Below are positions 1,318 through 38,713 of a stretch of 64,000 nucleotides of DNA, piece by piece. The notes beneath the pieces are model-generated. The model had not been told where the DNA came from, made no database searches, and saw nothing but the letters and a program-made list of their open reading frames with translations. The stretch lies in contig CALMNW010000014.1 in assembly GCA_937872095.1 (NCBI GenBank), forward strand, positions 112,799 through 176,798. Direction: 5' to 3'. Position 1 is the first letter of the stretch; each line of letters opens with the position of its first letter. Origin of the DNA: an uncultured Verrucomicrobiota bacterium. Lineage in GTDB: Bacteria > Verrucomicrobiota > Kiritimatiellia > CAIQIC01 > Lenti-01. The translations under genes were made by a program, and so were the position numbers.

Positions 1318-2454
1318 TTATACGCGCGGGGGCGCCGATGGCTCCTCCCCGCCGCCCCTCAAACGACGGCCAAGGTCATGCATAACGCATTGCCGAACCG
1401 GCCGGTTAACAATTTCTGCCGGAAAATGCCGCCAGAGGATTTTTCTCGCCTGTCGGTAGACGTCCGGCAGTCCGCTCCAGTATGCGTCCACCGCCACCTT
1501 CACGATGACCGCGCGCGCATAGCGGGAATCGGCCGCCAGCAGTGGGTCGATGTCGCCCGCCTCCGGAGCGCCGCTTGAAAAGGCTTGCAGCCGTTCTTGC
1601 GCCGCGCTCCGGATGGCCATCCGCCCATATTCCGTCCCCCAAAAAGAACGCTTCCAGCAGATCCGTTCGGACATCAGCTGGGTCAGAGAGTGTTCGGGAG
1701 CCAATCGAGCCGCCCCGACCGAGCGTTGAATGAACGCGTCGACGTTGTTGTACCCATCCCTCTTCTTGGCCGAATAGTAATGCCAAATCGCGGCATCTTG
1801 CGCCGTTTCGGGCGCATGGACGATTTGCGCATTGTAGCGATGCGGCAGGATCGAACATGTGGCGGGGGCTTCCCAAATCGCCGAGTTCAAGGCCGGCTGG
1901 TCCCGGTAGTCTTGGCGCCGGCGATAGGATTCCAGCCATTTTTCATGCCAGAGCCGATAGAACCGGTGCGCGCCGTCCGATTCGGAAGCGTAGAGCGCGC
2001 CGCCGTTCACGTAGACCGACGGACTGGTGCTCCACCCCATTTGCTTCAGGATGGCCTGGTCGATCCCGCTGATCTGGTGGGCGTACATCCCCCGCGAATG
2101 GTTTGGCGCGCCGCCCACGTCTCCCGGCACGGAAAAAATGGCCGAGAGATCGTCGCGAATGACCGTGTCGCTGTCCAAATACAGATACGGCCCGTCGATC
2201 CGCGAGCGCAAACTGGTCTTGATGAATCGGTTGCGGAAAACGGGAGATTCCGACGGCGTCTCGACAACCAACCAATCGTCGACCTCGCCGAGTAGCGGAT
2301 CCTGCCCCTGCCGTAGCGCCTTGTCCGTCTCCGCATCGCACGCCACCACCGTCTGGACCCCCGGATTCGTTTGCCGCAACGACGCCACCGAAATCCGCGT
2401 CATGGCGGTGTAGATGTCCCGACCGGACGAAGTGACGACGTAAACGGTTTTCAT
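1318..2454 (-). CDS. Putative glycosyltransferase (GT-A-like, DxD-type motif YLDSD)
   Basis: 378-aa ORF, MKTVYVVTSSGRDIYTAMTRIS N-terminus typical of nucleotide-diphospho-sugar transferases; YLDSDTVI DxD-like motif. Family not resolved by eye. Confidence 0.55.
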   Translation of the reverse strand: MKTVYVVTSSGRDIYTAMTRISVASLRQTNPGVQTVVACDAETDKALRQGQDPLLGEVDDWLVVETPSESPVFRNRFIKTSLRSRIDGPYLYLDSDTVIRDDLSAIFSVPGDVGGAPNHSRGMYAHQISGIDQAILKQMGWSTSPSVYVNGGALYASESDGAHRFYRLWHEKWLESYRRRQDYRDQPALNSAIWEAPATCSILPHRYNAQIVHAPETAQDAAIWHYYSAKKRDGYNNVDAFIQRSVGAARLAPEHSLTQLMSERICWKRSFWGTEYGRMAIRSAAQERLQAFSSGAPEAGDIDPLLAADSRYARAVIVKVAVDAYWSGLPDVYRQARKILWRHFPAEIVNRPVRQCVMHDLGRRLRGGGEEPSAPPRV

Positions 2455-2494: not shown

Positions 2495-3154
2495 TCATCG
2501 TTCCGGTTTCTTTTGGAAAAGAAGATTGAAATACAGGCCCGCCCAGCGCGGCAACCCGTGCGGGAAACATCTGAATCGCCGAAGGATAAATTGGTTGTGC
2601 GCCGCCCGCACTACCTGCCGATACGTGGTCACATGGTGTTCATTGATCCCGTGGTAGCCGATCAGATCGAACAGCGGAACCATCAAGCGATCGACCCGGG
2701 GCATGCCGATCAGCAACTGGCCGTCCGGCTGCAGCAGGCGCGCGCAGGCCGCCAAAGCCGTCGACGGATCCGCCACATGTTCGAAGATGGAGAAGGCGAC
2801 GATCAGGTCGAAGCGCTCCTCGCCGGCGCTGAACGAAGCGATATCCCCCTTGTGCAACTCGGCTTCGATGCCGAGGCCCCGCAAGATCTTCCCGGTTGCC
2901 TGCGGGTCGGAAGCAAGATCAACGCCGGCCACGTGCGGCGCCAGCGTGACGAGGGTGGGCATCAACAACCCGCTGCCATAGCCAATTTCAAGGATTCGCG
3001 CATACGGAGGGCGCAGCAGGGAAAGCCCGGATTCGATCCGGCGGCGATATAGCGCGCCAACAACCGGACGGTAGTAGAAATGAAGCGGATCGTCGTAGAC
3101 GTCGTTGGGCTGGAGAACTCCCTCCGGCGGCAAAAGCAGTTTCAAACGCGCCAT
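2495..3154 (-). CDS. Class I SAM-dependent methyltransferase
   Basis: GxGxG motif ILEIGYGSGLL followed by acidic D (VDLASD) and a FSIFEHV motif. ORF-track start 3313 trimmed to internal ATG at 3154 (MARLKLLLPP), which places about 56 aa before motif I and leaves a 22-nt gap to the upstream stop at 3177. Confidence 0.75.
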   Translation of the reverse strand: MARLKLLLPPEGVLQPNDVYDDPLHFYYRPVVGALYRRRIESGLSLLRPPYARILEIGYGSGLLMPTLVTLAPHVAGVDLASDPQATGKILRGLGIEAELHKGDIASFSAGEERFDLIVAFSIFEHVADPSTALAACARLLQPDGQLLIGMPRVDRLMVPLFDLIGYHGINEHHVTTYRQVVRAAHNQFILRRFRCFPHGLPRWAGLYFNLLFQKKPER

Positions 3155-3176
3155 TTGGATTTCCCTTTCACCGCCG

Positions 3177-5132
3177 TCACTGCTTTTTCCGTCCTCGCCC
3201 ATCGGCGGCATACGCGACCACTTGCGCCCGATAGACCAGCCGCGAGCCGGCCACCGGAGCCATGCGGCAATAGGCGATTCCGTCGCGAAGCATTGGATCC
3301 TCGAAAATGACATACGGAAAGAACCGTGCCCCCTCTTGCAGGCTCACCACGCCGCTGGCCAGCCACTCGCCGGGCTGAATCCCGCGAATCGCGGGATCTT
3401 CGACCGGACAACTCCCCCCGGTCTGCCGCTGGAAGTCGGCCCAGCGGATTTGGGGAATGCGGGTGGCGGCATCGTCGGAAACCACGTGCAGGATCGAACC
3501 CTTGTGAATGCGCACGGGCACGGTTTCGGGAGGGACATCCGCCCCCGCCGGGTCCGGTCTCCGAAATGCGCGATGCGTCTTGCCGACCGCCGGCATGCAG
3601 AGCATCAAGGCCAGCAAGACGACCGGCACGACATAGGCTTCACGATAGCGCGAAGCGCTCGGCGCGACGGGCGGCGCATCGCATCGCCGCAACCGCTCGA
3701 GACACCCTTTCATGCCGATGGCCAACACCCCGCCGGTCATGGCAACGGTCGCGGCAAACACTCGATAGCCGACGTCCACCAGAAACGGCAGGGAAAGAAC
3801 AATGCCGCCCAGCGCGGCCCCGAGAGCCACCAAGAGCCTGCGCCGGCCTTCATCTTTTTCATACGCCAGCATGACGAAAAAGTAGATGAACGGCATCAGG
3901 AAAACCGTCAGTTCAACCGGAAAAGGGTACCAAGGATAGAGGCGGGCAAAAGGATGGATCAGGATGTCGCGATACCCCTCGGCCAGAGAGACAAATAGCG
4001 CAAACGGTTTCTCCCGGAGTTCCTGGCGCACAAGCCCATAGATCATCCGGGATCGCTGCGAATCCGAGAGTTCCATGAGTTCCGGATGCTCGGTCTTGAC
4101 ATAATCCCAGCCCTTGTTGCCCTTGATGATTCCATAGAGCGTATACGAGAAATTGCCGCCCAGAACGCCGCCCGTCGGCGGACCGGCCAGTCGCAACTCC
4201 GCCATATTCAGCAGAAACGGAAGGGCGATCGCCCCGACGCAAAGCGCGACCATCGGGATGCTGTATGTACGGGGCGCAGCAAAAATCCGGCCGGCGGCGA
4301 GGGCCAGCGCCGGCAGCACGAACAGGGCGCCGGCCCGGAGGGTAAACGCCACGCCCAGCAGGCCAAGCCCCAGCGCAAATGCCCCCTTGCGGCGAGTAAA
4401 CGCGCCTTGCGCCAAAAGCAGAAACCCAAAATTGCCGAAACACAGTCCCGGAATTTCGGTCATCGTGGTAGGCGCGAACGGCAGGATGAAATACACCTGC
4501 AGCAACAACGCCAGAAGCGCAGCCACGATGCCAAAGTGGTTGAAGATCCAGCGGCAAAACAGATAGATCGACAGAATCAGGATCGCGACGTTCACCACGA
4601 TGACGGCCATCAGGTTCTGACCGGTCGCCAATAGCAGCAAGGCGTAGTAGTTGGCCACCATGGGCTTTCGGGCCGACCATTCATCCAAAAATCCATGTTC
4701 CAACAGATTCCTCGCCCCCTGGAGATACCCATACGCATCGCTTTGCGGGACGAATCCGGCAATCGAAAAACCGCCGGAGATTCCGCCACTCCAGATCTTG
4801 TACAGTTTGGCCCCCAATAGCATGGCCGTCAGGATCAAGAGCAGCCAGCCGACAACCGGGCTCCGATTGAGCATCTGCTTGCGCGAAACCAGTTCATAGA
4901 TGCCCAGGGCAACCAGCACAAGCGGAAAGGGCAACTGGAGGGATGAGCCTGCGGCGCTCGATGCGGCGGCCCACAGATACAGGGCCAACGCCACGCCGAA
5001 CCCGCCCCCCATGGCAACGGTGGCCCATCCGTCCGTTTCGAGGCGGGTCCTCGCCGTGCGCAGAAAGTCCATCATGGGCCGCGACAATCCGCACAAGACC
5101 AAGCCGGCAAGTTTTTCGGCAAGATCGCCCAA
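3177..5132 (-). CDS. Polytopic integral membrane protein, probable GT-C-type glycosyltransferase or polymerase-like protein
   Basis: 651 aa with more than 10 hydrophobic helices and a soluble C-terminal domain of about 150 aa. Lies in the glycan locus. Family not assigned. Confidence 0.65.
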   Translation of the reverse strand: MGDLAEKLAGLVLCGLSRPMMDFLRTARTRLETDGWATVAMGGGFGVALALYLWAAASSAAGSSLQLPFPLVLVALGIYELVSRKQMLNRSPVVGWLLLILTAMLLGAKLYKIWSGGISGGFSIAGFVPQSDAYGYLQGARNLLEHGFLDEWSARKPMVANYYALLLLATGQNLMAVIVVNVAILILSIYLFCRWIFNHFGIVAALLALLLQVYFILPFAPTTMTEIPGLCFGNFGFLLLAQGAFTRRKGAFALGLGLLGVAFTLRAGALFVLPALALAAGRIFAAPRTYSIPMVALCVGAIALPFLLNMAELRLAGPPTGGVLGGNFSYTLYGIIKGNKGWDYVKTEHPELMELSDSQRSRMIYGLVRQELREKPFALFVSLAEGYRDILIHPFARLYPWYPFPVELTVFLMPFIYFFVMLAYEKDEGRRRLLVALGAALGGIVLSLPFLVDVGYRVFAATVAMTGGVLAIGMKGCLERLRRCDAPPVAPSASRYREAYVVPVVLLALMLCMPAVGKTHRAFRRPDPAGADVPPETVPVRIHKGSILHVVSDDAATRIPQIRWADFQRQTGGSCPVEDPAIRGIQPGEWLASGVVSLQEGARFFPYVIFEDPMLRDGIAYCRMAPVAGSRLVYRAQVVAYAADGRGRKKQ

Positions 5133-5228: not shown

Positions 5229-6059
5229 TTACCCTCGCGCGGATGCCTTCCCCGCGATCGTTTCCGGGCGGGGGACATTTCGAACCAACGTGATCAGCGC
5301 AAACATGGCGGACCGTTTTCCAACCGGTCCGAGCGCCCGTTCCAGCACGCGACAAGGACGATAGGCCCATCCAGGGGCCAGCGACCGCAGCGACACGCCC
5401 CCCGACAGCAGATAGGCAAAGGGCATGAGCGGTTCGATCCGGGTCGGCGACCATTCGGGAAATTGCCGCTCAAACTTGGATCGGTCCCGGACAAACAGAA
5501 TCCACGGCAACGCGCCATTGGCCCCCGACAAGGGACCCTGATCCGGGAAACCCCATTGTTCCGCCTCCGGCCGAAACGGCTCGGAATGAAAATGCCCATA
5601 CACGAACCGAGACCACGGCGTCACCCATGGCTCGATCATTACGATTGCGCCGCCCGGGCGAACCACGCGGGCGGCTTCGGTGAAAAACCGTTCGGGCGTG
5701 CCGATGTGATGCAACACGTCGGTCATGACGATGGCCCGGAGCGAGCCGTCCGCGAAGGGCAATATCCCGGTCGCAGGCAAAACCCGATCCACCCCGGCGA
5801 CGGGCAGGACGTCGGTAGTAACCAAGCCGGGAATCCACTCCTTCATGAACCCCGCTCCGGAACCCAATTCGACCACGGGATCCGCTCCACTCGGCAAGTG
5901 GCGGCGGATCAGCCCATACCACTCCTCGTAGAGCTGGAACAGAAAGCGTTTGTTCCGGATGATGGCGCGGCGCCGTTCGGTCGTCTGCGGATCGTCCACG
6001 TCCATTCCGCGAGTCGCGGGATGCAGCAGCCAGCCGGAGATGCGAGCAGCCGCGCTCAT
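5229..6059 (-). CDS. Class I SAM-dependent methyltransferase
   Basis: Motif I VVELGSGAGF, post-II DGSLRAIVMTDVLHHI (Methyltransf_11-like). ORF-track start 6356 trimmed to ATG at 6059 (MSAAARISGW); the upstream 100 aa are Gly/Arg-rich low-complexity. Confidence 0.75.
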   Translation of the reverse strand: MSAAARISGWLLHPATRGMDVDDPQTTERRRAIIRNKRFLFQLYEEWYGLIRRHLPSGADPVVELGSGAGFMKEWIPGLVTTDVLPVAGVDRVLPATGILPFADGSLRAIVMTDVLHHIGTPERFFTEAARVVRPGGAIVMIEPWVTPWSRFVYGHFHSEPFRPEAEQWGFPDQGPLSGANGALPWILFVRDRSKFERQFPEWSPTRIEPLMPFAYLLSGGVSLRSLAPGWAYRPCRVLERALGPVGKRSAMFALITLVRNVPRPETIAGKASARG

Positions 6060-6467: not shown

Positions 6468-7940
6468 ATGAAGGAAGTCGCCATGCAGGACGAAGTCATT
6501 CCAGGGCCGTTGCCCGCCGCGCTCACCGAGCGGAAATCGTTTGTCGAACGAATCTACCAAGAGCAGTTGCCGACTCGCGAGCGGGCCGTAAACCGGGCCC
6601 GTTATTATTATTTCAATCTCAAGCGCCTGCTGAAGTTCATCGTCGAACCGGGACGGCGCGTGCTGCAGATCCATTGCGACATCGGCCATCTGCTGGATGC
6701 GGTGGCCCCCGCGCGCGGCCTCGGCATTCACCCCAGTGCCGGCCATTTGGAAATCGCCCGCAAGAATTATCCCGATCTGGAATTCAGGCAGATGGATGCC
6801 CACGACTTCGCCTGCGACGAGAAATTCGACTACGTCATGCTGTGCAACGCCATCGGAGACATCGTCGACGTCGAAGCCACCCTGCTGCGTTGCCAGAAAG
6901 TCATGGCCCCTGAATCGCGGCTGGTCTTGGTCTGGACCAACTACCTGTGGCAACCCGTCTTCAAACTGGCTGAACGAATCGGGCTCAAGAGCCGGCAACC
7001 CACGTTGAACTGGTTTAGCCCGTCCGACGTGGAAAATCTGCTCTCCCTCACCGGATTCGAACCCGTCAAAGAAAATCAAGCTCTGTTGCTGCCGGTCTAC
7101 GTTCCCTTCGTTTCCTGGTTCCTCAACTCGGTTCTGGCCCGCATCCCGCCGTTCCACCGGCTCTGCTACGTGAAAAGCCTGGTGGCCCGACCGGTGAAAA
7201 CCCCGAGAACCTTGGCGCAACCTCGAGTATCGGTCATCGTCCCATGCAAAAACGAAGTCGACAACATCCAAGCGGCGGTAGAACGGATCCCGGCGCTGGG
7301 CAGCCATACCGAAATTGTTTTCTGCGACGACAAATCGACCGATGGCACGGCTGAAAAAGTCCGCGAAATGCAACGATTGCATCCGGAAAAAGACATCAAG
7401 CTGGTTGAGGGCCCAGGCGTCTGCAAAAGCCTCAACGTGTGGGCCGGCTTCGACGCGGCACAGGGCGACGTCTTGATGATTCTGGATGCCGACCTGACTA
7501 CCTTGCCGGAGGAACTCCCCTATTTTTATGCGGCCATCGCGGAGGGACGGGGAGAATTCATCAACGGCTCTCGAATGGTTTATCCAATGGCGGAGGATGC
7601 CATGAAGCCCCTGAACGTGCTGGGCAACAAACTGTTCAGCCTGGCCTTCTCCTATTTGCTGGGCCAGCGCATCAAGGACACGCTCTGCGGCACCAAGGTT
7701 CTGTGGAAGAAAGATTACGAGCGCATGAAGGCCTTGCGCGGCACCTGGGGGGTCATGGATCGCTGGGGAGACTACGAACTGATCTTCGGCGCCGCGAAGT
7801 TGAACTTGAAAATCGTCGATCTCCCGGTGCACTACGTGGAACGGATCCACGGCGAGACCAAGATGACCAAGCGCTTCAAAAACGCCGCCGTCATGGCCCG
7901 CATGTGCTTGGCCGCACTGGTCCGACTGCGTTTCGCCTAG
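6468..7940 (+). CDS. Bifunctional fusion: N-terminal class I SAM methyltransferase domain plus C-terminal GT2 polyprenyl-phosphate-type glycosyltransferase
   Basis: N-terminal half carries RVLQIHCDIGHLLD (motif I-like) and LCNAIGDIVDVE. C-terminal half is canonical GT2 (VSVIVPCKNEVDNI, FCDDKSTDGT, ILDADL, C-terminal ETKMTKRFKNAAVMARMCL as in DPM1/ArnC/GtrB-like enzymes). Confidence 0.85.
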   Translation: MKEVAMQDEVIPGPLPAALTERKSFVERIYQEQLPTRERAVNRARYYYFNLKRLLKFIVEPGRRVLQIHCDIGHLLDAVAPARGLGIHPSAGHLEIARKNYPDLEFRQMDAHDFACDEKFDYVMLCNAIGDIVDVEATLLRCQKVMAPESRLVLVWTNYLWQPVFKLAERIGLKSRQPTLNWFSPSDVENLLSLTGFEPVKENQALLLPVYVPFVSWFLNSVLARIPPFHRLCYVKSLVARPVKTPRTLAQPRVSVIVPCKNEVDNIQAAVERIPALGSHTEIVFCDDKSTDGTAEKVREMQRLHPEKDIKLVEGPGVCKSLNVWAGFDAAQGDVLMILDADLTTLPEELPYFYAAIAEGRGEFINGSRMVYPMAEDAMKPLNVLGNKLFSLAFSYLLGQRIKDTLCGTKVLWKKDYERMKALRGTWGVMDRWGDYELIFGAAKLNLKIVDLPVHYVERIHGETKMTKRFKNAAVMARMCLAALVRLRFA

Positions 7941-8021: not shown

Positions 8022-9473
8022 TTATGTCCGTCGAGAACCGCCAAATCCACTCCGGATTCCGTGGATGACCGGCCACGCCAGGCTGCGTACGCGATCGCGC
8101 CAATAATGGCCAGGCCGGCATGGCAGGAGGCCGAAGCGCTGCCGCGCGAGATCGAATTGCGCCAGGACCACGACGTTGCGGATGGCGCCGGTCGCCTTCG
8201 CCCCCCGGTAGCTCTTCCAATGGCGATAAAGCCGATTCCATGCGGGGGCGAAGAGAAAGCCCAGCTTGTACAATTCGCCGTTGAAGGCATGCGCCTCCAG
8301 GCGTTCGGCCAACTCGTTCCGGCACCAGCGCTCGTAATCGTGGTAGTCCGTCAGCAGTTCGGGATCCGTTTCTTTCGTCGTCCCATCGGGCGCCACTCCG
8401 GTGCGCGCCCAGGGCAGGCTGTACAACCGGGCGTCCAGCTGCTTGAACGCCTGCGCATAGATCGCGCCGTCGCGCATGAACGGGCACAAGCCCCACATGA
8501 ACCCGACGACCGGATCGCTGGTGAACGCTTGATGGAACCCCGTGAACACCCGGATCCGGTCCATGGCGTGGCCGATCCATCGCCGCATGTAGTTTTCCTG
8601 CTGGTGATGCTCCCATTTGATGCAATCCGGACCGTCCGCGACCAAGGCCCAGGACGAAGCGATGTCTTCCCGCGCTTGGCGGAAGCACTCCTCTTCGAGA
8701 AACGGGTGGATCAATTGCGCGTTGTTCTGCAGACGAGGGCCCTGCAGGTTCAGCAGGTGGACCCCGCTGAATTCCGCCCGGCCGATGCTGTCCCCATAGC
8801 TCGCGGCAATGACCAGATCGTCTTTCGCGGCATGTTCGAACCAGTTCATCGCGTGCAGATGGGTGCCCGCGATCTCCGCCCCGCCCCAGGTCGCCATGCA
8901 TTCGACGTTTTTCCAGGTCCAATCGGCGCCATAGGGAACGTGGACGAAGTCCCAGCCGAATCCTTCCGCGAGCCGGCGCGCATACTGGACGTCCCGGCTC
9001 TTTTCGAAGCCCCAGGAGACCACCACGATTTCGGCGCGGATCTGCTGCCGCGCCCGATGCAGCACCCCCGCGACCATGCGGCTGTCGTAGCCGCCGGTCA
9101 GCAGCAGGTATACTTTTTTGCGGGAACCGATGGCCTCGAGGAGTTCCGCCTCCAGCAGGCGGCACAGTTCCCGGGCGGCCTCGGCGGGATCCATGTGCGC
9201 GAGTCCGTGCGGAATCGGCGGCAGGCGCGCAATCGTCCCGTCCTCCATCAGTTCCGCGCGCCACGGCATTTTTTTGACGGAGGGGACCAGCGTCCGCATG
9301 CCGCACATGTGATGGAAATTGAAGATTTCCAGGATGCCGACCGGATCCACGATCCGCTCGGCCGGCGGCACGGCCAGAATCGCTTCTTCGGCCGTCAAAT
9401 AGACCCGCTGGGGTTGCGCGTTCCCGATGAAATAGGGAGAGACGTTCCCGAAATTCGCCGTCCTGCAAATCAT
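8022..9473 (-). CDS. Asparagine synthetase-like amidotransferase, PP-loop ATP pyrophosphatase domain only (WbpS/AsnB-like)
   Basis: PP-loop YLLLTGGYDSRMVAGV (SGGxDS-type) about 120 aa from the N-terminus. No class-II glutaminase (N-terminal Cys) domain is present. Overlapped by long spurious ORFs 7974..9944(+) and 7891..9468(-). Confidence 0.8.
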   Translation of the reverse strand: MICRTANFGNVSPYFIGNAQPQRVYLTAEEAILAVPPAERIVDPVGILEIFNFHHMCGMRTLVPSVKKMPWRAELMEDGTIARLPPIPHGLAHMDPAEAARELCRLLEAELLEAIGSRKKVYLLLTGGYDSRMVAGVLHRARQQIRAEIVVVSWGFEKSRDVQYARRLAEGFGWDFVHVPYGADWTWKNVECMATWGGAEIAGTHLHAMNWFEHAAKDDLVIAASYGDSIGRAEFSGVHLLNLQGPRLQNNAQLIHPFLEEECFRQAREDIASSWALVADGPDCIKWEHHQQENYMRRWIGHAMDRIRVFTGFHQAFTSDPVVGFMWGLCPFMRDGAIYAQAFKQLDARLYSLPWARTGVAPDGTTKETDPELLTDYHDYERWCRNELAERLEAHAFNGELYKLGFLFAPAWNRLYRHWKSYRGAKATGAIRNVVVLAQFDLARQRFGLLPCRPGHYWRDRVRSLAWPVIHGIRSGFGGSRRT

Positions 9474-9522: not shown

Positions 9523-10287
9523 TCAGGCGAAACTCCGGCCCAACGTCCGCCGCAAGATTTTTCCGACCCGCCGCTTCCAGCGCAGCCACCACGGCGACGG
9601 CACGAGAACCGTCAATTCGCCGCGCCGGAGCACGGTGTACTGGGGATAGCGCTCCTGCAACAACCACCAGACCTGGGCGTTGTCCTCGACGAAACAAACG
9701 CAGCGTTTGGCGAGGAACGGCTGGATGCTCGCGAAAGACCGCAGGATGGACGCTTCGGAATGCAACCCGTCGTCGACGTAGACGTCGATCCGGTCCCCGC
9801 CCAGCAGACGCCGCAGCTTCTCCGTTTCGTCGATCAGCTGGTCGTACTCGTGCAGTTCGGGGTCGCCTCCGGGAAAGGCCCCGCGCGCTTTCAGTGCCGG
9901 CAGATTTTCCCGGACGTGGGACAAATCGATGTCCAGCCCGATGACCCGGCCGCCGGGAAACAGCTCCGACCACAGGGCGAGTCCCGTGCCCCGCAAGATC
10001 CCCGCTTCGACCAAGACGATTCTCCGCCCCGAACGAACGAACGGAGCCAAGTGCTCCGCGTAGCTGGGAGCGTATCCATGCACGGACATCCGATCCCCGC
10101 CGATCATGCCCCCCCGTTCCAGTTCTTCCGGCGAGCGCGGATCCAGCGGACTCACCGTTTTGCGGGGAATCCCCTTGTGAAACCCGCCATAATGGTCTTC
10201 CGTTCGAACGAGCCACTCGCCCAGTTCGCGGCAAGAAGCCGCCGGTTCGACGCTTGTCGTATCGTCACTCATTTCTTGTCCATGCAT
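9523..10287 (-). CDS. Class I SAM-dependent methyltransferase (CmcI/TylF-like fold)
   Basis: RIVLVEAGILRGTGL (motif I), GLDIDLSH, YVDDGLHSE. ORF-track start at 10299 is a TTG; the first ATG is at 10287. The stop of the upstream gene (10300-10302) abuts it. Confidence 0.75.
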   Translation of the reverse strand: MHGQEMSDDTTSVEPAASCRELGEWLVRTEDHYGGFHKGIPRKTVSPLDPRSPEELERGGMIGGDRMSVHGYAPSYAEHLAPFVRSGRRIVLVEAGILRGTGLALWSELFPGGRVIGLDIDLSHVRENLPALKARGAFPGGDPELHEYDQLIDETEKLRRLLGGDRIDVYVDDGLHSEASILRSFASIQPFLAKRCVCFVEDNAQVWWLLQERYPQYTVLRRGELTVLVPSPWWLRWKRRVGKILRRTLGRSFA

Positions 10288-10299
10288 TTGCCCAACCAA

Positions 10300-11073
10300 T
10301 CAGGCTTTTATGGTCAATCGCGCACTGATATCGACGATGGCCCAAAACGGTTTACGCCCAGTGAAGTATTCATCGACCGCTTTTTTGCATCCCTTCCAAT
10401 AACCAAGGTCATCGATAATACATATGCCGCCAGAAGAAAGCTTAGGCCAAAACGTTTGCAATTCCTTCTTGGTGGAACTGTACCAATCCGTATCCAATCG
10501 CAAAACGGCCAAGGATTCGATGCTGTCGGTGACCGCGGAGCGGCCCGGCACCAGGGTATCCTCAACCGGACCTTTGACGAACTGAACGGATGAAGACATG
10601 AGGCCGGCTTGATCGAAATTCGCCCGCACCTCTTCGAGAGAAGCATAGCACCAGGCGTTGTGATCTTCGCGGCGGTCCGCTTCAAATCGCCCTTTCGCAT
10701 GGAACCCATCTTCAAAGCGAAGGTCGGAATCGTCCGGTTCCGTCATGCCGGCAAAAGTGTCATACAAGATGACCTTGCGCCCGGGATCGCACGCTTTGAA
10801 GACATAGGCGGCCAACAGGGCATGTCCCCCGCGCCACACGCCGCATTCCACAAAATCCCCGGGTATGCCCTGCTCAACGGCATATCGACAGGCCAGAATC
10901 GTCGTGTACAAGTTTTCGACTCCGCACATGGTCAGTCGATTGCCGCGCACATATTTGACCATTTCCGCGTCCTGCTCGCTGAATTCGGCGGGTTTGAAAA
11001 AGGGCTTGGGAGCCGGACTGGGCGGCGGGCATGCGAACATGCGTTTCAACCGTCCCTTCATTCGATTCAACAT
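10300..11073 (-). CDS. TylF/MycF-family (macrocin-type) sugar O-methyltransferase
   Basis: Family signatures VECGVWRGG and LRLDTDWYSSTK; ATG at 11073 with an RBS-like spacer after the wzt stop. Confidence 0.85.
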   Translation of the reverse strand: MLNRMKGRLKRMFACPPPSPAPKPFFKPAEFSEQDAEMVKYVRGNRLTMCGVENLYTTILACRYAVEQGIPGDFVECGVWRGGHALLAAYVFKACDPGRKVILYDTFAGMTEPDDSDLRFEDGFHAKGRFEADRREDHNAWCYASLEEVRANFDQAGLMSSSVQFVKGPVEDTLVPGRSAVTDSIESLAVLRLDTDWYSSTKKELQTFWPKLSSGGICIIDDLGYWKGCKKAVDEYFTGRKPFWAIVDISARLTIKA

Positions 11074-11082
11074 GATCAGCTC

Positions 11083-12348
11083 CTAGTCGGCATGAAGGGT
11101 GGACTTGACCGACAGGTGCACGCTGCCGGTCGAATTTTCCGGAGGAGCAACCTTGAGTTTGATCCTGCGTTTCCAGTCGTACAACTCGGTGAAATCCGGA
11201 TTCCAAAAAATCACGCTGAATAAAATCGTCGGGTACGTGAAGGGCATGGCGGCGACATCCAGAAAAACAGTGCCCCGGCTGCCCTTTTTGCCGCAGACGC
11301 GGAGCTGTTCGTCCCCGCGATGTTGATGGAGTATCCCGCTCCGGTCGCTAACGGTCAATTCCAGGAAGGAATCCAAATCCTCGTCGGTCCCCTTGACATA
11401 GCCTACCGCCACCCGCAAGGAATCGCCCGTGCGGATCGTGTCGCACTTTTTCCCTTCGTCGTTGATGAAATCCACGGATACGATTTGAATGCGACCGGAA
11501 CCCGCGATTTCCCCTTCCACGCCCTGTTCCCGGTCGGGCAATCGGGCCGACGTTTCGATCGCCATGTCGTTTCCATATCGCGTCACGACCGCATCCGTCT
11601 TTCCGTCGAACAGGATTTGACCGCGATTTAAATACAAGGCTCGATCGCAATAGCGGGAGATATTGAGCATGTTGTGGGAAACCATGATGAAGGCCGTCCC
11701 CTTGGCGCGCAAAGTGCCGAGGCGATTCAGGCACTTCGCCTGAAAATTCATGTCCCCCACGGCCAACACTTCGTCCAGCAGCATGATGTCGGGACTCAAC
11801 GAGGATGCCACGGAGAACCCCAACCGCACGGCCATGCCGGAACTGTAGTTCTGCACGGGGGTGTCCATGAACTCGCCGATCTCGGCAAAATCGATGATCT
11901 CGTCCATCTTGGCGTCGATTTCCCGCTTGGAGAGGCCCAAAACCGAGGCGTTGACGTAGATGTTCTCCCGCCCGGTCAGGATGGGATTGAAGCCCGCGCC
12001 GAGGGCGATGAGCGCCCCGACCCGCCCCCGCATCTCGATCCGGCCCGAGTCGGGCTTGATCAGGCCGTTGAGCATCTTGAGGAGCGTGGTCTTGCCCGCC
12101 CCGTTCCGGCCGATCAGCCCGACGCTTTCCCCGCGTTTTAGTTCGAAGCTGACATCCTTGACCGCCCAGAATTCCTTGGGCCGAAGCCCGCCATGCCCCC
12201 CGTGTCGCCGCCCGAGCAATTCGTTGCCGATGTCTTTCAACCCGTAGAAAAGCGACTTCTTCAGGCTAAGACAGAACTTTTTCGAAACGCCTTCGACCCG
12301 GACCAGGACGTCGGAATCGGAATTCGAATTGTTTTCCGAGCTCTTCAT
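11083..12348 (-). CDS. wzt: Polysaccharide ABC transporter ATP-binding protein Wzt (TagH-like) with C-terminal substrate-binding extension
   Basis: Walker A GRNGAGKTT, ABC signature YSSGMAVRLGF, Walker B MLLDEVLAVGD, H-loop SHN. About 160 aa after the NBD look like a jelly-roll carbohydrate-binding domain, as in Wzt proteins that recognise capped O-polysaccharide termini. Confidence 0.9.
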   Translation of the reverse strand: MKSSENNSNSDSDVLVRVEGVSKKFCLSLKKSLFYGLKDIGNELLGRRHGGHGGLRPKEFWAVKDVSFELKRGESVGLIGRNGAGKTTLLKMLNGLIKPDSGRIEMRGRVGALIALGAGFNPILTGRENIYVNASVLGLSKREIDAKMDEIIDFAEIGEFMDTPVQNYSSGMAVRLGFSVASSLSPDIMLLDEVLAVGDMNFQAKCLNRLGTLRAKGTAFIMVSHNMLNISRYCDRALYLNRGQILFDGKTDAVVTRYGNDMAIETSARLPDREQGVEGEIAGSGRIQIVSVDFINDEGKKCDTIRTGDSLRVAVGYVKGTDEDLDSFLELTVSDRSGILHQHRGDEQLRVCGKKGSRGTVFLDVAAMPFTYPTILFSVIFWNPDFTELYDWKRRIKLKVAPPENSTGSVHLSVKSTLHAD

Positions 12349-12429: not shown

Positions 12430-13275
12430 TCACGCCGACATCCGCTCGATCAAAATCGGCATGGACAGCCGGTAGCCGACCCAGGAAACGAACAGCAGTC
12501 CAAGCGCGGCCAGATTGACGCCGATGAACGTGGCCACGAATTCCGGCGATTGCCCCGTCAGCCAAGCCCGGGCGTTGAGAATCAGCGGAGTGACGGGATT
12601 CAGGACGAAGATCTTGGCCACCAGCCCGCCCCCTTGCGGCATCGGAAACACGACGGGGGTCACGTACATCAGGAACTGCATCACCATCGGCAAGGCACGC
12701 CCCACGTCGCTGTAGAGCATGCCCATCGGAGTGATGAACAGCCCGATGGCGGTTCCCGTCAGGATGATGGCAAACACGCCGACCGGGAACATGAGCAACC
12801 CCCAGCCGGGATTCACTTTGAAAAACGGCAACACGCACAACAGCAGCGCGATCTTGATCGAGGCGTTGAACAGCGTCCGGTAGATGCCTGCCAGCAACAG
12901 CGCCTCCCGCGGAAAATTCAATTTGGCCAGCATGCCGCGGGCCGCATTCGTCTGCCCCATCGGCGCGTTGATCGAATCCATGAAAATGGCCCAAAGCATC
13001 GTTCCGGCAAAGACATAGACCGGATACGGGATGGGCGTCTCCTGGATGGCCACGATGCCGGAACCATTCAGGAACAACCACACCATCGTGTTGGCCAACG
13101 GCAAAATCAGCGCCCACAGGATGCCGAGGAAGGATTGGCGGTATTGCGCGCTGACGTCGCGCACCGTCAGGCGCCAAGCCAATTCGCGCCCGGCCCACAG
13201 ATCCTTCGCCATGGCTTTCGCCATGACGAACGGATTCGCCAGCGACGAGTCGGGAGTGTAGATGGTCGTTTTCAT
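12430..13275 (-). CDS. wzm: ABC-2 type polysaccharide exporter permease Wzm
   Basis: 281 aa with 6 TM helices, ABC-2 family layout, immediately upstream of and co-directional with wzt. Confidence 0.9.
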   Translation of the reverse strand: MKTTIYTPDSSLANPFVMAKAMAKDLWAGRELAWRLTVRDVSAQYRQSFLGILWALILPLANTMVWLFLNGSGIVAIQETPIPYPVYVFAGTMLWAIFMDSINAPMGQTNAARGMLAKLNFPREALLLAGIYRTLFNASIKIALLLCVLPFFKVNPGWGLLMFPVGVFAIILTGTAIGLFITPMGMLYSDVGRALPMVMQFLMYVTPVVFPMPQGGGLVAKIFVLNPVTPLILNARAWLTGQSPEFVATFIGVNLAALGLLFVSWVGYRLSMPILIERMSA

Positions 13276-13403: not shown

Positions 13404-14546
13404 CTACTTTTTCCATCTGGCTTCGAACCGACCCGTCCAGGCATCCCCTGCGGCTTGCAGCAAGGCCGCGTTCACCCCCCAAAACGCTCCCAGCAACCCC
13501 AACAGACGCGAAGAAATCCGCTTTCCACCCCAAAAGGCCATGAAACTGACGAAAATTGCGCCCAAAGCCCCTAAAAACGACATCTGGAGCCACTTTGGGC
13601 CATCCCAAGCCAGCCAACCCATTGAAAAATAGGCCAAAACAACGAAAAATGGGGTCAAAAGCCTTAAAAACTTGTGCGAAACCCATTGAAACCAGATCGG
13701 ATTGGCTAAAATGGAGTAAATTTGGGGCTCCAAGTGTCCCATTTGCCAAATTCCGGCCAACGTTCGGCGTTTTCTGAGCCCTTCTTGGCCAAAATGGGCC
13801 GTCGGAAGGTCGAAAACGCGCGCGGAAGGCTCGAAAAGGCAGCGAAACCCCTTCAAAACGGCTCTCATGGGGATCAACACGTCGTCCACCAGCGTATTTT
13901 CCGGAATGGGACCCGCCAGCTCGCTCCGAATGGCATAGAACGCCCCGGTGGCGCCGGGAACCGCCCAGTGGCGGCTCTCGCAGAGCCGGATGAATTTCTC
14001 GTATCCCCAATAGGATTCCGCCCCTTTTTGCGCGCCGCCGTCTGCCGACTCGTACACGAGCGCCCCCGAGACCGCACCGACCCGCTCATCCGCGAAATTT
14101 TCCAGAAGCCGGGAAATCGCGCCGGCCTCCACCCGCTGCCGGGCATCCATCAGGACGAAAACGGGTTGGTCGGCTTTCGCCATCAGGTCGTTCAGCACCG
14201 CGGCCTTGCCGCGCTGGCGCTCGAGTTCGAGGAGCTGGACGAGCGCGCCATTTTCCGCCCGATCCAAAACGCCGCGGACCTGCGCCGACGTTCCATCCGT
14301 GCAGCCGTCGAGTCCGATCCAGATTTCGCGAATGGGTTCGGTCTGCGCCAGATCCAGCAGGTTTTCCACTTTGCGCGGCAAGGTCTCCGCTTCGTCGTGC
14401 GCGGCGATCAGCACCGCCGCCCCGCCCGCGAAGGGCCCCTTCTTCACGGGCCGGCCTCGGATCCGCGACAGCAGCCAGATCAACGCCGGATAACCCGCGT
14501 AGACGTAGCCCAACAAGAGGACCCCTATGGCGAAAACCCATCGCAT
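13404..14546 (-). CDS. GT2 family glycosyltransferase with C-terminal transmembrane helices
   Basis: GT-A GT2 core (AAVLIAAHDEAETL, LDGCTDGT, LMDARQ DxD-like, QGLRKRRTLAGIWQ QxxRW-like) followed by 3-4 TM helices. Confidence 0.85.
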   Translation of the reverse strand: MRWVFAIGVLLLGYVYAGYPALIWLLSRIRGRPVKKGPFAGGAAVLIAAHDEAETLPRKVENLLDLAQTEPIREIWIGLDGCTDGTSAQVRGVLDRAENGALVQLLELERQRGKAAVLNDLMAKADQPVFVLMDARQRVEAGAISRLLENFADERVGAVSGALVYESADGGAQKGAESYWGYEKFIRLCESRHWAVPGATGAFYAIRSELAGPIPENTLVDDVLIPMRAVLKGFRCLFEPSARVFDLPTAHFGQEGLRKRRTLAGIWQMGHLEPQIYSILANPIWFQWVSHKFLRLLTPFFVVLAYFSMGWLAWDGPKWLQMSFLGALGAIFVSFMAFWGGKRISSRLLGLLGAFWGVNAALLQAAGDAWTGRFEARWKK

Positions 14547-14608: not shown

Positions 14609-15571
14609 TTACGGCTTCGGACCGGCGGATTCGTCCGCCGGAGCGGCCGGCTCGACGACCTCCGCGATCGCCTCGGGACTTTGGTTGATTTCCGTATAGA
14701 TGCGCCAGACGTATTCGCCCAGCACGCCCATCATGATGAACCCGCACCCCTGGAAAAACCCCACCAGCGACACGATCGTGGCGTAGCCCGGCACGGGAAT
14801 GATGCCCAACGCCTTGGCCACGAAAATGAACGCCACGTACAGAAAACAGACGAACGCCAGCCCGAAGCCCAACAGGGTCATCAGCCGCATCGGCTTGACC
14901 GAAAACCCCACGGTCGAATCGATGAAATAATTCACCTTCTTCCGGAACGTCCATTTCGATTTGCCGTAGGGCCGGTTTTCCCGGTGGTAGGACAAGAGCG
15001 TGGCCGGCACGCCCAGCGACCAGGCAAACAAGGACAGATTCTTGTTGTGCCCGCAGCGGAGCATGTGCGGCAGGAACAGGCGGTCCATGATCGCCATGTC
15101 GAACCCGCCGATCGGAAAATCCTTCATGACCAGCGCCCGGACGAGCCGATAGTTGAGCCAGGCGAAAAACTTGGTCAACGGCGGGTCCTCCCGCGAAGCC
15201 CGGGTCCGCACCACGAAGCGGCTGCCCGCCAGCCAGGCAGCCACCATTTCCGGCAGCAGTCCGGGCGGATCCTGCAGGTCCGCCGCCAAGAAGGTGAAGC
15301 AATCCCCCTTCACGTGGGCGAAGCCCGTCTTGATGGCCGCCATCGATCCGCGGTTGGCCAAATGGTTGACGACCACCGTTCCGGGCCGGCGGCGCTGGAT
15401 TTCCCGCAGACGGTCGAGGGAGGCGTCGCCGGACGCGTCGTTCACGAAGATGAGCTGCAGGTCCACTCCCCGCTCCGCCAATTCCTTTTCCACCCGGTCC
15501 AATTCGTCCGCCAGGGGAATGAGCGAGTCCTGGTTGTAGTAGACCGGCACGACGATGGAGAGCGTGGGCAT
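14609..15571 (-). CDS. GT2 polyprenyl-phosphate glycosyltransferase (ArnC/GtrB/DPM-synthase-like) with two C-terminal TM helices
   Basis: LSIVVPVYYNQDSL, FVNDASGD, LAADLQDPP, KSKWTFRKKVNYFIDSTVGFSVKPMRLMTLLGF; ATG at 15571. Confidence 0.88.
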   Translation of the reverse strand: MPTLSIVVPVYYNQDSLIPLADELDRVEKELAERGVDLQLIFVNDASGDASLDRLREIQRRRPGTVVVNHLANRGSMAAIKTGFAHVKGDCFTFLAADLQDPPGLLPEMVAAWLAGSRFVVRTRASREDPPLTKFFAWLNYRLVRALVMKDFPIGGFDMAIMDRLFLPHMLRCGHNKNLSLFAWSLGVPATLLSYHRENRPYGKSKWTFRKKVNYFIDSTVGFSVKPMRLMTLLGFGLAFVCFLYVAFIFVAKALGIIPVPGYATIVSLVGFFQGCGFIMMGVLGEYVWRIYTEINQSPEAIAEVVEPAAPADESAGPKP

Positions 15572-15574: not shown

Positions 15575-16681
15575 TTATCCTCGGGTTGAGATGACGGCTT
15601 GCACGGCGGCGGCGACGGCTTCCGGCGCGGCGAGATGGGGCCCGATCGGCAGGCTGAGTTCTTCCGCCGCGATTCGTTCCGCCACGGGAAAGTCGCCCGC
15701 CTGGCGCCCCTGGTGCGCATAGGCCCCCGACAGATGGGGCGGAATCGGATAATGGATCTGGGTGTGAATGCCGTTGGCTTCCAACCGGGCCTGCAGGCCG
15801 TCGCGATCTTTCGCCAACAGAGGAAAGAGATGCCAGATCGGTTCCGCGTCTTTCGCCACGGCGGGCAACTGGATGCCCTCCAGACCCCGCAACCGTTCGC
15901 GATAGGCTGCCGCGATCTGGACCCGCCGCCGGTTCCATTCGTCCAGATGCTTGAGCTTCACCGACAGAAAAGCGGCCTGCAGGGGATCCAGGCGCGAATT
16001 CAAGCCCAACACCTCGTGCTGGTACTTGCGATCCGACCCGTAGTTGCGCAGGCGGCGCAAACGCGCGGCCAGGGCTTCGTCGCCGGTCGTCACCGCGCCG
16101 CCGTCGCCGAAGGCCCCCAGATTTTTGCCGGGATAGAAACTGAAGCCCGCCAAATCTCCCCAGGTTCCGGTGCGGCGCCCCCGGTAGCGGGCGCCGTGGG
16201 CCTGCGCGGCGTCTTCCACGACGACGAGACGATGGCGGCGCGCCACCGCGAGGATGGCGTCCATGTCCGCCGGTTGCCCGTAGAGATGCACCGGCATAAT
16301 CGCTTTGGTCCGGGGCGTGAGGGCCGCCTCGATCCGCGCGGCATCCAGATTGTAGGTGTCCGCCCGGACGTCCACGGGCACGGGCACGGCCCCCGCGTGG
16401 CTGACGGCCAGCCACGTGGCGATGAACGTCATCGCCGGAACGATCACTTCGTCGCCCGGTCCGATGCCCGCCGCCAGCAGCGCCAACGTCAGCGCATCCA
16501 GGCCGTTGGCGACGCACACGCAATGCCGTACGCCGCAATACGCCGCGAATTCCGCCTCGAAGCGCTCGACCTCTTCGCCCAAAATATACCACCCGCTGGC
16601 CATCACCCGCCGATAGGCCGCGTCGAGGTCCTCCTGCAGTTCGGTATAGGCCGGGAGCAATTCCAGAAAGGGAACGTTCAC
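15575..16681 (-). CDS. DegT/DnrJ/EryC1/StrS-family PLP-dependent sugar aminotransferase (FdtB/QdtB-like)
   Basis: N-terminus VNVPFLEL..., [34 protein letters not shown] (PLP-Lys region). The ORF-track N-terminal extension is Arg-rich. True start is GTG at 16681, overlapping the upstream stop as GTGA. Confidence 0.88.
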
Positions 16682-17103
16682 GCCTGGGCCTTCCGGGTTG
16701 CCGCGATGAAATCGTCGTAGCGGCGGTAATAATCCGCTTCGTCGAAATATTCCGAAGCCAGCACGAGACAGACCGAGCCGGACGAGAAGTTGTCGATGGT
16801 CCGCCAAATCATCGGGCAGAGATAAAGCCCGTGGTAGGACCGATTGAGGTGATAGGTCTTCTTCTCGAACCCATCGTCCAAATGGATGTCGAAACTGCCC
16901 GACATGGCCACCACGAGCTGGTGCAGCTGCTTGTGCGCATGCCCCGCCCGCTCGGCGCCGCCGGGCACGTCGTAGAGATAGTAGACCCGCTTGATGTCGA
17001 ACGGCAAATGGCGGCCGCCCTCGATGAAAGTCAAATTGCCGCGCGGTTCGCGGACGATCGGCAGATCGACGATGCGCACGTTCTGCATTGGATTCGAGCT
17101 CAT
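16678..17103 (-). CDS. Cupin-type dTDP/NDP-4-keto-6-deoxyhexose 3,4-ketoisomerase (FdtA/QdtA/WxcM C-terminal-domain-like)
   Basis: [19 protein letters not shown]..., [18 protein letters not shown]. The 389-aa track ORF is about 250 aa of Arg-rich wrong-frame read-through plus this 141-aa domain starting at ATG 17103, which has a GGAAAGGGAAGGG RBS-like stretch upstream. Confidence 0.75.
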
Positions 17104-17771: not shown

Positions 17772-17948
17772 CCTGATTTCCTCGTTTCTTCGCGGAACCC
17801 TGCCGGCGGCGGCGAAAAACGGCCCGCCGCGGCGGCCGAACCGCCATTTCGATCTCGGAAAGTATGCAAGAGGGAGCAACGCCCTGTCAATCAAGGACCG
17901 ATTGCGGGCACGGAACGGATTTGCCTTTATGTGGCGCGGCGTTTTTGA

Positions 17949-38700: not shown

Positions 38701-38713
38701 GGTCGGATCTCCT

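Follow-up and report, generated by a model that had tools for sequence, protein, structure and literature searches.

The gene at 6483..7940 (+) of the window (the whole 64-kb stretch of DNA analyzed) encoded a fusion of a methyltransferase (MT) fold with a glycosyltransferase (GT2) domain of the polyprenyl-phosphate glycosyltransferase (Pren-P GT) type. The reading to which we inclined, with modest confidence, was that of a lipid-sugar synthase that is active and whose MT fold serves, without catalysis, as an anchor or scaffold, methylation being carried out by the adjacent stand-alone MTs. The fusion is ancient, widely conserved, and uncharacterized, and its family is a widespread Pren-P GT architecture without transmembrane (TM) helices and with an N-terminal MT fold. 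Pren-P GTs such as ArnC, GtrB, and DPM1 supply lipid-linked sugars for the modification of LPS, teichoic acids, and glycoproteins.

Gene model and domain architecture

An uninterrupted ORF spanned 6468..7940 (+) (490 aa), and its GC1/2/3 of 0.61/0.38/0.76 was typical for coding sequence (the window had about 60% GC). A Shine-Dalgarno-like AAGGAAG at 6471-6477 was located 5 nt upstream of ATG 6483, and the database protein P0001 (485 aa, 100% identity to the fusion) began at the same ATG, so the product was likely the 485-aa protein of 6483..7940. The translation of an overlapping minus-strand ORF (522 aa) was implausible, and the promoter/terminator scan over 5900-8200 gave no signal exceeding shuffled expectation. 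The gene and its domains were delimited as follows:

6483..7940 (+), fusion gene, 485 aa plus stop; alternative upstream ATG 6468 giving 490 aa
6483..7202 (+), N-terminal class I MT-fold domain, residues 1-240
7215..7937 (+), GT-A/GT2 domain of the polyprenyl-phosphate glycosyltransferase type, residues 245-485

In the 490-aa ORF, Pfam Methyltransf_23, _25, and _11 matched residues ~50-200 above cut-offs (E about 1e-6 to 1e-7), Methyltransf_12 was slightly below cut-off on the N-terminal half, and Glycos_transf_2 matched residues 255-384 (E 4e-21). The AlphaFold2 (AF2) model was a single compact two-domain protein (pLDDT 91 and pTM 0.90). These Pfam matches, the AF2 model, and the full-length homologs, which numbered in the thousands (see below), agreed with the initial annotation that MT and GT2 were fused in a single polypeptide.

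Distribution and authenticity of the fusion family

The database search with the fusion protein gave >7,800 matches, the best 120 of which were all full-length (474-544 aa, 51-100% identical); one database relative, P0005, was 80% identical. The scan of species-level genomes disclosed full-length relatives (41-80% identity) in at least 595 of them, and the description of MT-GT fusions as uncommon was wrong for this family. The 80 loci kept from the genome scan covered >15 phyla and were nearly all from MAGs; nearly all lineages in which the family has turned up so far are uncultured, among them Kiritimatiellia, Acidobacteriota, Verrucomicrobiota, Nitrospirota, Omnitrophota, and CPR. Its members were named 'glycosyltransferase', 'SAM-dependent methyltransferase', or 'hypothetical protein' in current databases, and their annotation would improve. 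The full-text literature search found no paper describing the MT-GT2 fusion family; the literature matches to 'glycosyltransferase-methyltransferase' were unrelated fungal gene pairs.

A merger of two adjacent genes through a frameshift or assembly error, the artifact against which the initial annotation had cautioned, was left with practically no probability and was rejected on comparative evidence: the 474-544-aa architecture was common to the best 120 independent database clusters, the at least 595 genomes with relatives were separate assemblies, the domain-junction residues V234, A235, and R236 were kept among homologs, and AF2 joined both domains as one unit. Nothing was found in favor of such a merger, and the fusion was genuine.

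SAM site of the MT-fold domain

The N-terminal domain (N-domain) contained a complete and confidently modeled seven-stranded Rossmann-like MT fold, with the following sites:

6660..6695 (+), degenerate motif I, V60-L-Q-I-H64-C-D66-I-G68-H-L-L71, being (D/E)-x-G-x-G-x-G in canonical MTs
6729..6731 (+), His83 at the end-of-beta2 site, being Asp/Glu (SAM ribose ligand) in canonical MTs

Motif I was aligned with ILDLGCGTGQL of 3ccf and LLEVGAGTGYWL of 2gs9; in its core Q62-I-H64-C-D66-I-G68, His stood at G1 and Asp at G2, the third Gly alone was retained, and the acid preceding G1 was also replaced (Gln62). His83 was aligned with D of 3ccf (LGTD) and E of 2gs9 (VGVE). The intact SAM-binding GxGxG that the initial annotation had proposed to check was thus missing, motif I reading V-L-Q-I-H-C-D-I-G and the beta2 acid being His83. 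The 120 closest homologs had R84/H11/K10 at position 64, Q48/E34/D33 at position 66, G68 in 120/120, and E56/D51/H13 at position 83 (D/E in 107/120). The (H/Q/Y)-C-D-I-G-H form of motif I was clade-specific and conserved within the clade, and His at position 83 was confined to the fusion's clade, being present in 13/13 Kiritimatiellia-like relatives. The putative former SAM pocket displayed His64, Cys65, Asp66, His69, and His83 in this clade and Arg64 in most other relatives.

Relatives at 41-49% identity retained the canonical E-x-G-[CS]-G-x-G and D/E83, so the loss of the SAM motif in the fusion's lineage was derived. Given the eroded motif I and His83, the suggested coupling of glycosylation with methylation in a single enzyme was doubtful for the fusion itself, while it was plausible for these canonical relatives. 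As read from motifs alone, SAM binding has probably been lost, and the N-domain is probably inactive in methyl transfer; residues other than Gly are tolerated at G1/G2 by some active class I MTs (Tyr at G2 in COMT and Phe at G1 in C5-DNA MTs), and His83 could still hydrogen-bond the SAM ribose. Within the clade, the N-domain showed 70% identity versus 83% for GT2, and R32, D116, D129, R146, W156, W177, P204, P208, and N215 were kept in canonical and degenerate groups alike; as judged from residue conservation, the N-domain is not decaying and is retained under purifying selection.

Motifs of the GT2 domain

The GT-A fold of the C-terminal domain was nearest to the solved Pren-P GTs DPMS, ArnC, and GtrB, and the best sequence and structure matches of the GT2 domain were all Pren-P GTs (DPMS, ArnC, GtrB, and AglJ); Pfam and the closest structures bore out the previous assignment to the polyprenyl-phosphate (DPM1/GtrB/ArnC) type. 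NCBIfam scores were far under cut-off: 77 versus 325 bits for AglJ, 40 versus 529 bits for ArnC, and 52 versus 375 bits for Dol-P-hexose. Two motifs were delimited:

7485..7493 (+), DxD metal/nucleotide motif D335-A-D337 in ILDADLT, present in 120/120 homologs
7824..7865 (+), P448-V-H-Y-V-E-R454-I-H-G-E-T-K460-M motif, from profile alignment to IPVHHAEREFGESKY of ArnC

The GT2 DxD, unlike the SAM motif, was intact, and DADLT of the fusion was aligned with DADLQ of DPMS and ArnC; the Gln site corresponded to Thr339 (T99/A16/S5 among 120 homologs), with D335-A-D337-L invariant. In the D-A-D-L-Q motif of Pren-P GTs, the metal is held by the second Asp and the Gln (PMC12698845; bioRxiv 10.1101/2025.01.29.634835). 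R364 in N361-G-S-R364, also invariant among 120 homologs, was aligned with G-S-R of PfDPMS, and its equivalence to PfDPMS R117 depended on shifting the numbering of the PDB chain by 22 residues; the acceptor-phosphate arginine is universal, being R122 in GtrB, R128 in ArnC, and R117 in PfDPMS (PMC12698845; bioRxiv 10.1101/2025.01.29.634835). The profile alignment set LPVHYVERIHGETKM of the fusion against IPVHHAEREFGESKY of ArnC, with R454 aligned with ArnC R205 and PfDPMS R202, and R454, T459, K460, and M461 were invariant among 120 homologs. The role of ArnC R205 has been described, this position being a fully conserved arginine before JM2 in an R-x-x-G-x-S-K motif (bioRxiv 10.1101/2025.01.29.634835).

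Membrane attachment and comparison with known Pren-P GTs

The hydropathy scan of the whole protein gave no TM helix in the fusion and a sole hydrophobic segment:

7083..7139 (+), residues 201-219, LLLPVYVPFVSWFLNSVLA, mean Kyte-Doolittle 1.72 in the hydropathy scan

This segment was inserted between strands beta6 and beta7, the last two of the MT fold, and was also found in a stand-alone paralog; P204, P208, S211, N215, and P222 were invariant or nearly so among homologs. It was considered a candidate monotopic membrane anchor. Pren-P GTs of the DPMS/GtrB/ArnC kind are characterized by a pair of amphipathic juxtamembrane helices and, after these, 2-4 TM helices. Possible counterparts of juxtamembrane JM1 and JM2 in the AF2 model of the fusion are helices 376-393 and 464-483; no TM helices were found after the GT domain in this model or in the hydropathy scan, and the protein ended in the single helix 464-483. 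With the sole hydrophobic segment located in the N-domain, this domain would substitute for the C-terminal TM anchors of GtrB, ArnC, and DPMS.

Compared to the Pren-P GTs PfDPMS (5MLZ), ArnC (8VXH), GtrB (5EKP/9NYE), and AglJ, the fusion shared DxD, the G-S-R arginine, and the arginine and lysine of E-R-x-x-G-x-(S/T)-K, but it displayed (i) no C-terminal TM helices or C-terminal beta-hairpin, (ii) an extra 240-residue N-terminal MT fold, and (iii) DADLT instead of DADLQ. Eukaryotic DPM1 is a soluble Pren-P GT catalytic subunit without TM helices, anchored by DPM2/DPM3 (PMC12698845). The fusion resembled DPM1 in that its catalytic domain had no TM of its own and would need another element for membrane attachment. 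In the fusion, this element would be the MT-fold domain, present in cis, instead of small membrane proteins acting as separate subunits, and genes resembling DPM2 or DPM3 were not found.

Genetic context

The fusion adjoined a Wzm/Wzt ABC-transporter glycan locus, which also contained a full-length canonical ArnC-like enzyme (14609..15571). Its neighbors were as follows:

2495..3313 (-), 'MTb', stand-alone class I MT (Pfam Methyltransf_23/11/25) with intact G-Y-G-S-G
3177..5075 (-), putative partner, polytopic membrane glycosyltransferase of GT-C fold, 632 aa, ~10 TM, with a C-terminal beta-rich domain
5229..6059 (-), 'MTa', divergent stand-alone class I MT, 276 aa (Pfam Methyltransf_11), with intact G-S-G-A-G
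8022..9473 (-), convergent AsnB-like gene (PF00733)

The convergent AsnB-like gene and the divergent MT gene were both located as the initial annotation had placed them. MTb was just downstream of the GT-C gene, and its start was uncertain, with Met54 at 3154 avoiding the GT-C overlap. Stand-alone MTs were found beside the fusion in 45/84 loci (MTa family adjoining it in 32/84 and MTb family in 28/84), with median gaps of 73-112 bp and one to three MT genes linked. Such adjacent MTs occurred with 30/50 degenerate and 15/34 canonical fusions; this difference was neither significant nor convincing, and the idea that stand-alone MTs compensated for degenerate fusions was discarded.

The GT-C gene was 1.3 kb from the fusion, neither directly adjacent nor co-oriented in the window, and an ortholog of its product passed PMT_2. 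A protein with at least seven TM segments was found within 3 kb of the fusion in 48/84 loci, being directly adjacent in ~25; from these polytopic proteins 10 were sampled, including three that passed PMT_2, one with a weak PMT_2 match, one with DUF2079, and two with C-terminal TPR repeats. In pairwise BLASTP, the membrane protein of the window showed no significant similarity to the fusion-adjacent ones in the related loci L001 and L003, and clustering of 59 fusion-adjacent membrane proteins gave tiny groups only. Divergence among the GT-C proteins of different loci is too great for orthology to be demonstrated, and their relatedness is read from PMT_2/DUF2079 matches and fold.

In the Gtr and Arn systems, Pren-P GT genes are paired with GT-C enzymes, and the three-component systems GtrA/GtrB/Gtr*, ArnC/ArnE-F/ArnT, and Klebsiella gmlABC combine a synthase with a GT-C by an O-antigen-type locus, the ABC-transporter pathway included (PMC11127046). 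The fusion was similar in being a synthase with a GT-C gene near an ABC-transporter glycan locus, but it differed in its synthase architecture, in its linked MT genes, and in the lack of a detected GtrA-like flippase: by a crude hydropathy test, no 90-230-aa ORF with at least three hydrophobic segments, as expected for a GtrA/ArnEF-type flippase, was present in the 64-kb window. Because systems of a synthase plus GT-C are well known, the fusion was no surprise in its pathway logic.

Proposed role and alternative explanations

In the proposed pathway, the 485-aa product would be a cytoplasmic, membrane-peripheral enzyme, and its GT-A domain, from fold, motifs, and gene neighborhood, would convert a nucleotide sugar into a polyprenyl-phosphate-monosaccharide. 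The lipid-linked sugar would then be flipped by a putative flippase and used by the GT-C enzyme of 3177..5075 on an extracytoplasmic glycan, most plausibly the polysaccharide of the adjoining Wzm/Wzt locus. The GT-C neighbor and the recurrent polytopic proteins near relatives fit such a system, in which a GT-C enzyme and its lipid-linked donor operate next to a Wzm/Wzt locus. Points that told against this pathway were Thr339 at the DADLQ Gln site, the absence of a detected flippase gene from the window, and the GT-C gene being neither directly adjacent nor co-oriented. The N-domain would be the descendant of an active SAM MT, now a rigidly packed scaffold under selection, and any methylation in the pathway would fall to the MTs of 5229..6059 and 2495..3313.

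How the MT fold is used admitted other explanations. It could be a repurposed, SAM-independent module that anchors the Pren-P GT through the beta6-beta7 insertion, its remodeled pocket binding another ligand, a metal, or the lipid-sugar product and presenting it to the neighboring active MTs, which would yield methylated lipid-linked donors for GT-C enzymes; this was entertained with low confidence as a rather unlikely variant, and if true, it would mean that a pseudo-methyltransferase serves as a scaffold in the making of bacterial envelope glycans and is conserved across many uncultured phyla. A bifunctional enzyme, as suggested in the initial annotation, was an unlikely but serious contender: the variant pocket would bind SAM, and the sugar would be O-/N-methylated on the nucleotide sugar or the polyprenyl-phosphate-sugar, giving a methylated lipid-linked donor. 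The completeness and confident modeling of the class I fold, the invariance or near invariance of G68, D116, D129, and many further N-domain residues, and the purifying selection still acting on this domain were consistent with bifunctionality, as were the 41-49%-identical relatives with canonical motif and D/E83; the latter are, by their motifs, probably active, and the ancestral fusion thus plausibly coupled both reactions. Against it, three independent SAM-contact sites were altered together (G1 His, G2 Asp, and beta2 His), the pre-G1 acid was gone as well, and the intact stand-alone MTs nearby could provide methylation.

The remaining alternative concerned the acceptor of GT2. By analogy with WsaE and O-antigen modifiers, it might be a soluble, glycan-directed enzyme that acts in the cytoplasm on the ABC-transporter-dependent polysaccharide while this grows, adding a sugar at its end or as a side chain; the absence of TM helices and of the DADLQ Gln, the location among the several MTs of a Wzm/Wzt locus, and the canonical ArnC-like enzyme already present at 14609..15571 all spoke for it. 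We considered it improbable nonetheless, with the top structure and sequence matches all being Pren-P GTs, R364 and R454, hallmark arginines of Pren-P GTs, being invariant, and polytopic membrane proteins (the sampled ones often GT-C) recurring beside the gene across phyla.

Comparison with other MT-fold proteins

In WsaE, an MT is combined with rhamnosyltransferase domains that have the glycan chain as their substrate. WbdD joins a kinase to an MT and has a coiled-coil ruler (PMC11127046). The fusion was similar to WsaE/WbdD in having an MT domain in glycan biosynthesis at an ABC-transporter-dependent locus, but a WsaE/WbdD-type terminator was rejected because no supporting domain, profile, or structural similarity was found in the fusion; the likeness drawn by the initial annotation gave way to DPMS, ArnC, and GtrB as closest structures and to GT-C as genomic partner.

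METTL14 (with METTL3) and DNMT3L are inactive MT-fold partners with an eroded SAM site, kept for a structural/scaffolding role. These are eukaryotic partners of nucleic-acid MTs, whereas the MT fold of the fusion was joined to a glycosyltransferase, and the likeness is one of analogy. The intact and eroded SAM sites found within one orthologous family would constitute a natural series from catalytic domain to scaffold/anchor.

Reading frame and distribution of the fusion

The open frame 6468..7940 (+) ran for 490 codons without interruption in the window ORF and translation, and Pfam assigned roughly residues 50-200 of the 490-aa ORF to class I methyltransferase (MT) families (E ~1e-6 to 1e-7; Methyltransf_23, _25, and _11 above cut-offs and Methyltransf_12 just under) and residues 255-384 to Glycos_transf_2 (E 4e-21), bearing out the initial annotation of one polypeptide with MT and GT2 halves. 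Residues were numbered from the second ATG (6483), since the Shine-Dalgarno-like AAGGAAG (6471-6477) lay 5 nt upstream of it and the 485-aa database protein P0001 (100% identity) started there. The codon-position GC of 0.61/0.38/0.76 was typical for real genes in a ~60% GC window; an overlapping antisense ORF of 522 aa gave a low-complexity, implausible translation.

Among 5.8 billion protein clusters, the fusion had >7,800 matches; the best 120 were all full-length (474-544 aa; 51-100% identity), and their few source names were Kiritimatiellia (80% identity), Deltaproteobacteria, Thermodesulfobacteriota, and CPR Magasanikbacteria. When one genome per species was scanned, relatives turned up in at least 595 genomes, at odds with the earlier description of the fusion as uncommon. 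The best 80 of these loci, nearly all from MAGs and one from an archaeal MAG, covered Omnitrophota, Acidobacteriota, Verrucomicrobiota, Planctomycetota, Nitrospirota, Chloroflexota, Bacteroidota, Elusimicrobiota, Hydrogenedentota, Latescibacterota, and CPR. In the AlphaFold2 model, both halves formed one compact protein (pLDDT 91, pTM 0.90). A frameshift or merged-gene artefact was ruled out by the full-length homologs, the spread of relatives across genomes, and this compact model. The archaeal MAG contig JABHHN010000082.1 carried a full-length homolog at 10001-11383 (42% identity, canonical GCGTG motif), suggesting inter-domain transfer or mis-binning.

GT2 half

The following were invariant or nearly so in 120 homologs: D282-D283, D335-A-D337, N361-G-S-R364, D399-T-L-C-G-T-K405, W428-G-D-Y-E, H450-Y-x-E-R454, and T459-K-M; the GT2 DxD (D335-A-D337), whose state had been left for checking, was thus intact. 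Polyprenyl-phosphate glycosyltransferases (Pren-P GTs) are defined by the DADLQ metal motif together with two Arg residues, the first universally conserved (GtrB R122, ArnC R128, and Pyrococcus furiosus DPMS R117) and the second fully conserved (ArnC R205 and P. furiosus DPMS R202) (PMC12698845; bioRxiv 10.1101/2025.01.29.634835). Via G-S-R, R364 lined up with the first Arg (its equivalence to R117 depends on a 22-residue offset correction in PDB chain numbering), and via PVH-x-x-E-R-x-x-G-E-(S/T)-K, R454 lined up with the second. By most sequence and fold criteria, the fusion resembled DPMS, GtrB, and ArnC and would share their mode of action, but it differed from them in part of the DADLQ motif (Thr339 at the Gln position) and in TM helices, of which hydropathy and the AlphaFold2 model gave none, the C-terminus being a single helix (464-483).

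MT half

Compared to active class I SAM MTs, the N-terminal domain had the fold but departed from both sequence criteria. In place of the intact SAM-binding GxGxG that was to be verified, motif I read V-L-Q-I-H64-C-D66-I-G68, aligned with ILDLGCGTG and LLEVGAGTG of the MT structures 3ccf and 2gs9, respectively, and His83 occupied the acidic end-of-beta2 position (D in 3ccf and E in 2gs9). Of the 120 closest homologs, 105 had R/H/K at position 64, 115 had Q/E/D at position 66, and all had G68; at position 83, 107 had E/D and the other 13 had His. These 13 constituted the Kiritimatiellia-like clade, within which (H/Q/Y)-C-D-I-G-H-L-L and G-(L/I)-H were conserved. The N-domain alone had 1,941 matches (133 at E <= 1e-30) among 1.84 billion cluster representatives, including stand-alone and GT2-fused proteins, most with canonical E-x-G-[CS]-G-x-G plus D/E, and relatives with 41-49% identity in 84 genomic loci were mostly canonical in motif I, which argues that the loss of the canonical SAM motif is derived. 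Within the clade, identity was 70% for the MT-fold domain versus 83% for GT2, and R32, D116, D129, R146, W156, W177, P204, P208, N215, and P222 were common to the canonical and degenerate groups of relatives; this conservation argues that the domain is not decaying.

The MT-fold domain is probably a pseudo-enzyme. The main rival, that it still methylates, stays alive because an eroded motif is not proof of inactivity: in COMT the G2 residue is Tyr, and in C5-DNA MTs the G1 residue is Phe. Against continued methylation, four SAM-related positions (Q62, H64, D66, and H83) were altered together.

The only hydrophobic stretch of the fusion, residues 201-219 (mean hydropathy 1.72), lay inside a segment inserted between the final two MT-fold strands. 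A clear stand-alone paralog of the N-domain (224 aa; 30% identity over residues 41-236, E 4e-31), found at 13359-14033 (+) of CPR Magasanikbacteria locus L003, kept its GCGTG motif intact and shared this hydrophobic insertion (PFVSxFLN), which suggests from sequence that this MT subfamily is membrane-associated. In L003, this paralog was followed by a 564-aa, 9-TM protein.

Glycan locus and neighbours

The fusion lay inside a ~21 kb glycan locus, convergent to the AsnB-like PP-loop gene and divergent from MTa, as initially annotated.

Genes of the glycan locus
1318..2454 (-), GT8-like
2495..3313 (-), MTb
3177..5075 (-), polytopic membrane protein
5229..6059 (-), MTa
6483..7940 (+), fusion
8022..9473 (-), AsnB-like
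9523..10299 (-), MT-like (MT24-like protein)
10300..11073 (-), TylF-type O-methyltransferase
11083..12348 (-), Wzt (weak Wzt_C match, E 2e-4, below cut-off)
12430..13275 (-), Wzm
13404..14546 (-), GT2
14609..15571 (-), full-length ArnC/PgfS-like GT2 (NCBIfam E 2.7e-44 and 1.8e-35, below cut-offs)
15575..16807 (-), DegT aminotransferase
17127..18200 (-), hexapeptide acyltransferase
17949..18965 (+), GT4

For the AsnB-like protein, the match to asparagine synthase was confined to the PP-loop synthetase part (PF00733, residues 116-179; LLLTGGYDSR motif), and no glutaminase domain was detectable; the protein may act on a sugar acid as an amidotransferase or adenylating enzyme. Wzm and Wzt constituted an ABC-transporter glycan export pair, and the TylF-type and MT24-like proteins directly downstream on the minus strand were candidate enzymes for a non-reducing-end methylation that Wzt would recognise. 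The ArnC/PgfS-like GT, DegT, and acyltransferase looked like an Arn-like branch for a lipid-linked N-acylated amino sugar, which gives the locus two candidate lipid-sugar synthases. At the locus edge, a 694-aa protein (18860-20944, +) with ~8 hydrophobic segments and no Pfam/NCBIfam match could be another GT-C, polymerase, or ligase.

Recurrent families from clustering of ORFs near the fusion (84 loci)
MTa family, 32/84
MTb family, 28/84
MTa or MTb, 45/84
NAD-dependent epimerase/dehydratase, 28/84
FkbM-type MT, 17/84
ArnC-like GT2 (family of 14609..15571), 17/84
B12-radical SAM enzymes, 8/84

MTa/MTb genes were mostly directly downstream of the fusion on the same strand (median gaps 73-112 bp). 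Proteins with >=7 TM segments and >=380 aa lay within 3 kb in 48 of the 84 loci, immediately adjoining in ~25; BLAST clustering failed to group these too divergent neighbours. Among 10 sampled, three passed PMT_2 and one matched it weakly, one had DUF2079, two had C-terminal TPR repeats, one had a CBM, and two had no match.

With fold, conserved catalytic motifs, and gene linkage observed, the best-supported role of the fusion was a variant of the 'lipid-phosphate-sugar synthase plus GT-C' scheme of extracytoplasmic glycan modification, reviewed in PMC11127046 together with a similar three-component pathway in Klebsiella, where ABC-transporter-dependent processes make the O-polysaccharides. 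The GT2 would load a sugar onto a lipid acceptor, the lipid-linked sugar would be flipped and passed to a final acceptor, and the MT-fold domain would be inactive and serve as an anchor; no GtrA-like flippase gene was detected within the 64-kb window. This pathway logic is ordinary, while the architecture is widespread and uncharacterised: neither a curated family nor a solved structure nor a published description of it was found, and homologs were named 'glycosyltransferase', 'SAM-dependent methyltransferase', or 'hypothetical protein'.

Other genes in the window

A second glycan-related cluster was located at 36042-42905, in which UDP-galactopyranose mutase implied galactofuranose-containing glycans.

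Genes of the second cluster
36042..37889 (-), PMT_2 GT-C
37918..39042 (-), nucleotidyltransferase
40794..41720 (-), GT14 'Branch' enzyme
41748..42905 (-), UDP-galactopyranose mutase

A 583-aa fusion of nucleotidyltransferase and APH-type kinase domains (24094-25845, +) may be a bifunctional sugar kinase/nucleotidyltransferase of a salvage or activation pathway. A giant ORF at 51101-63967 (-; 4,288 aa, very high GC3 of 0.89) matched Pfam only at about residues 1100-1515 (Lamin-tail [LTD] and HYDIN/ASH-type Ig-like domains), with no match in its remainder. At 42911-48687 (+), two alpha-amylase/CBM48 genes lay in tandem (714 aa and 1,190 aa), and the 1,190-aa protein also matched the CBM53 starch-binding module below threshold.
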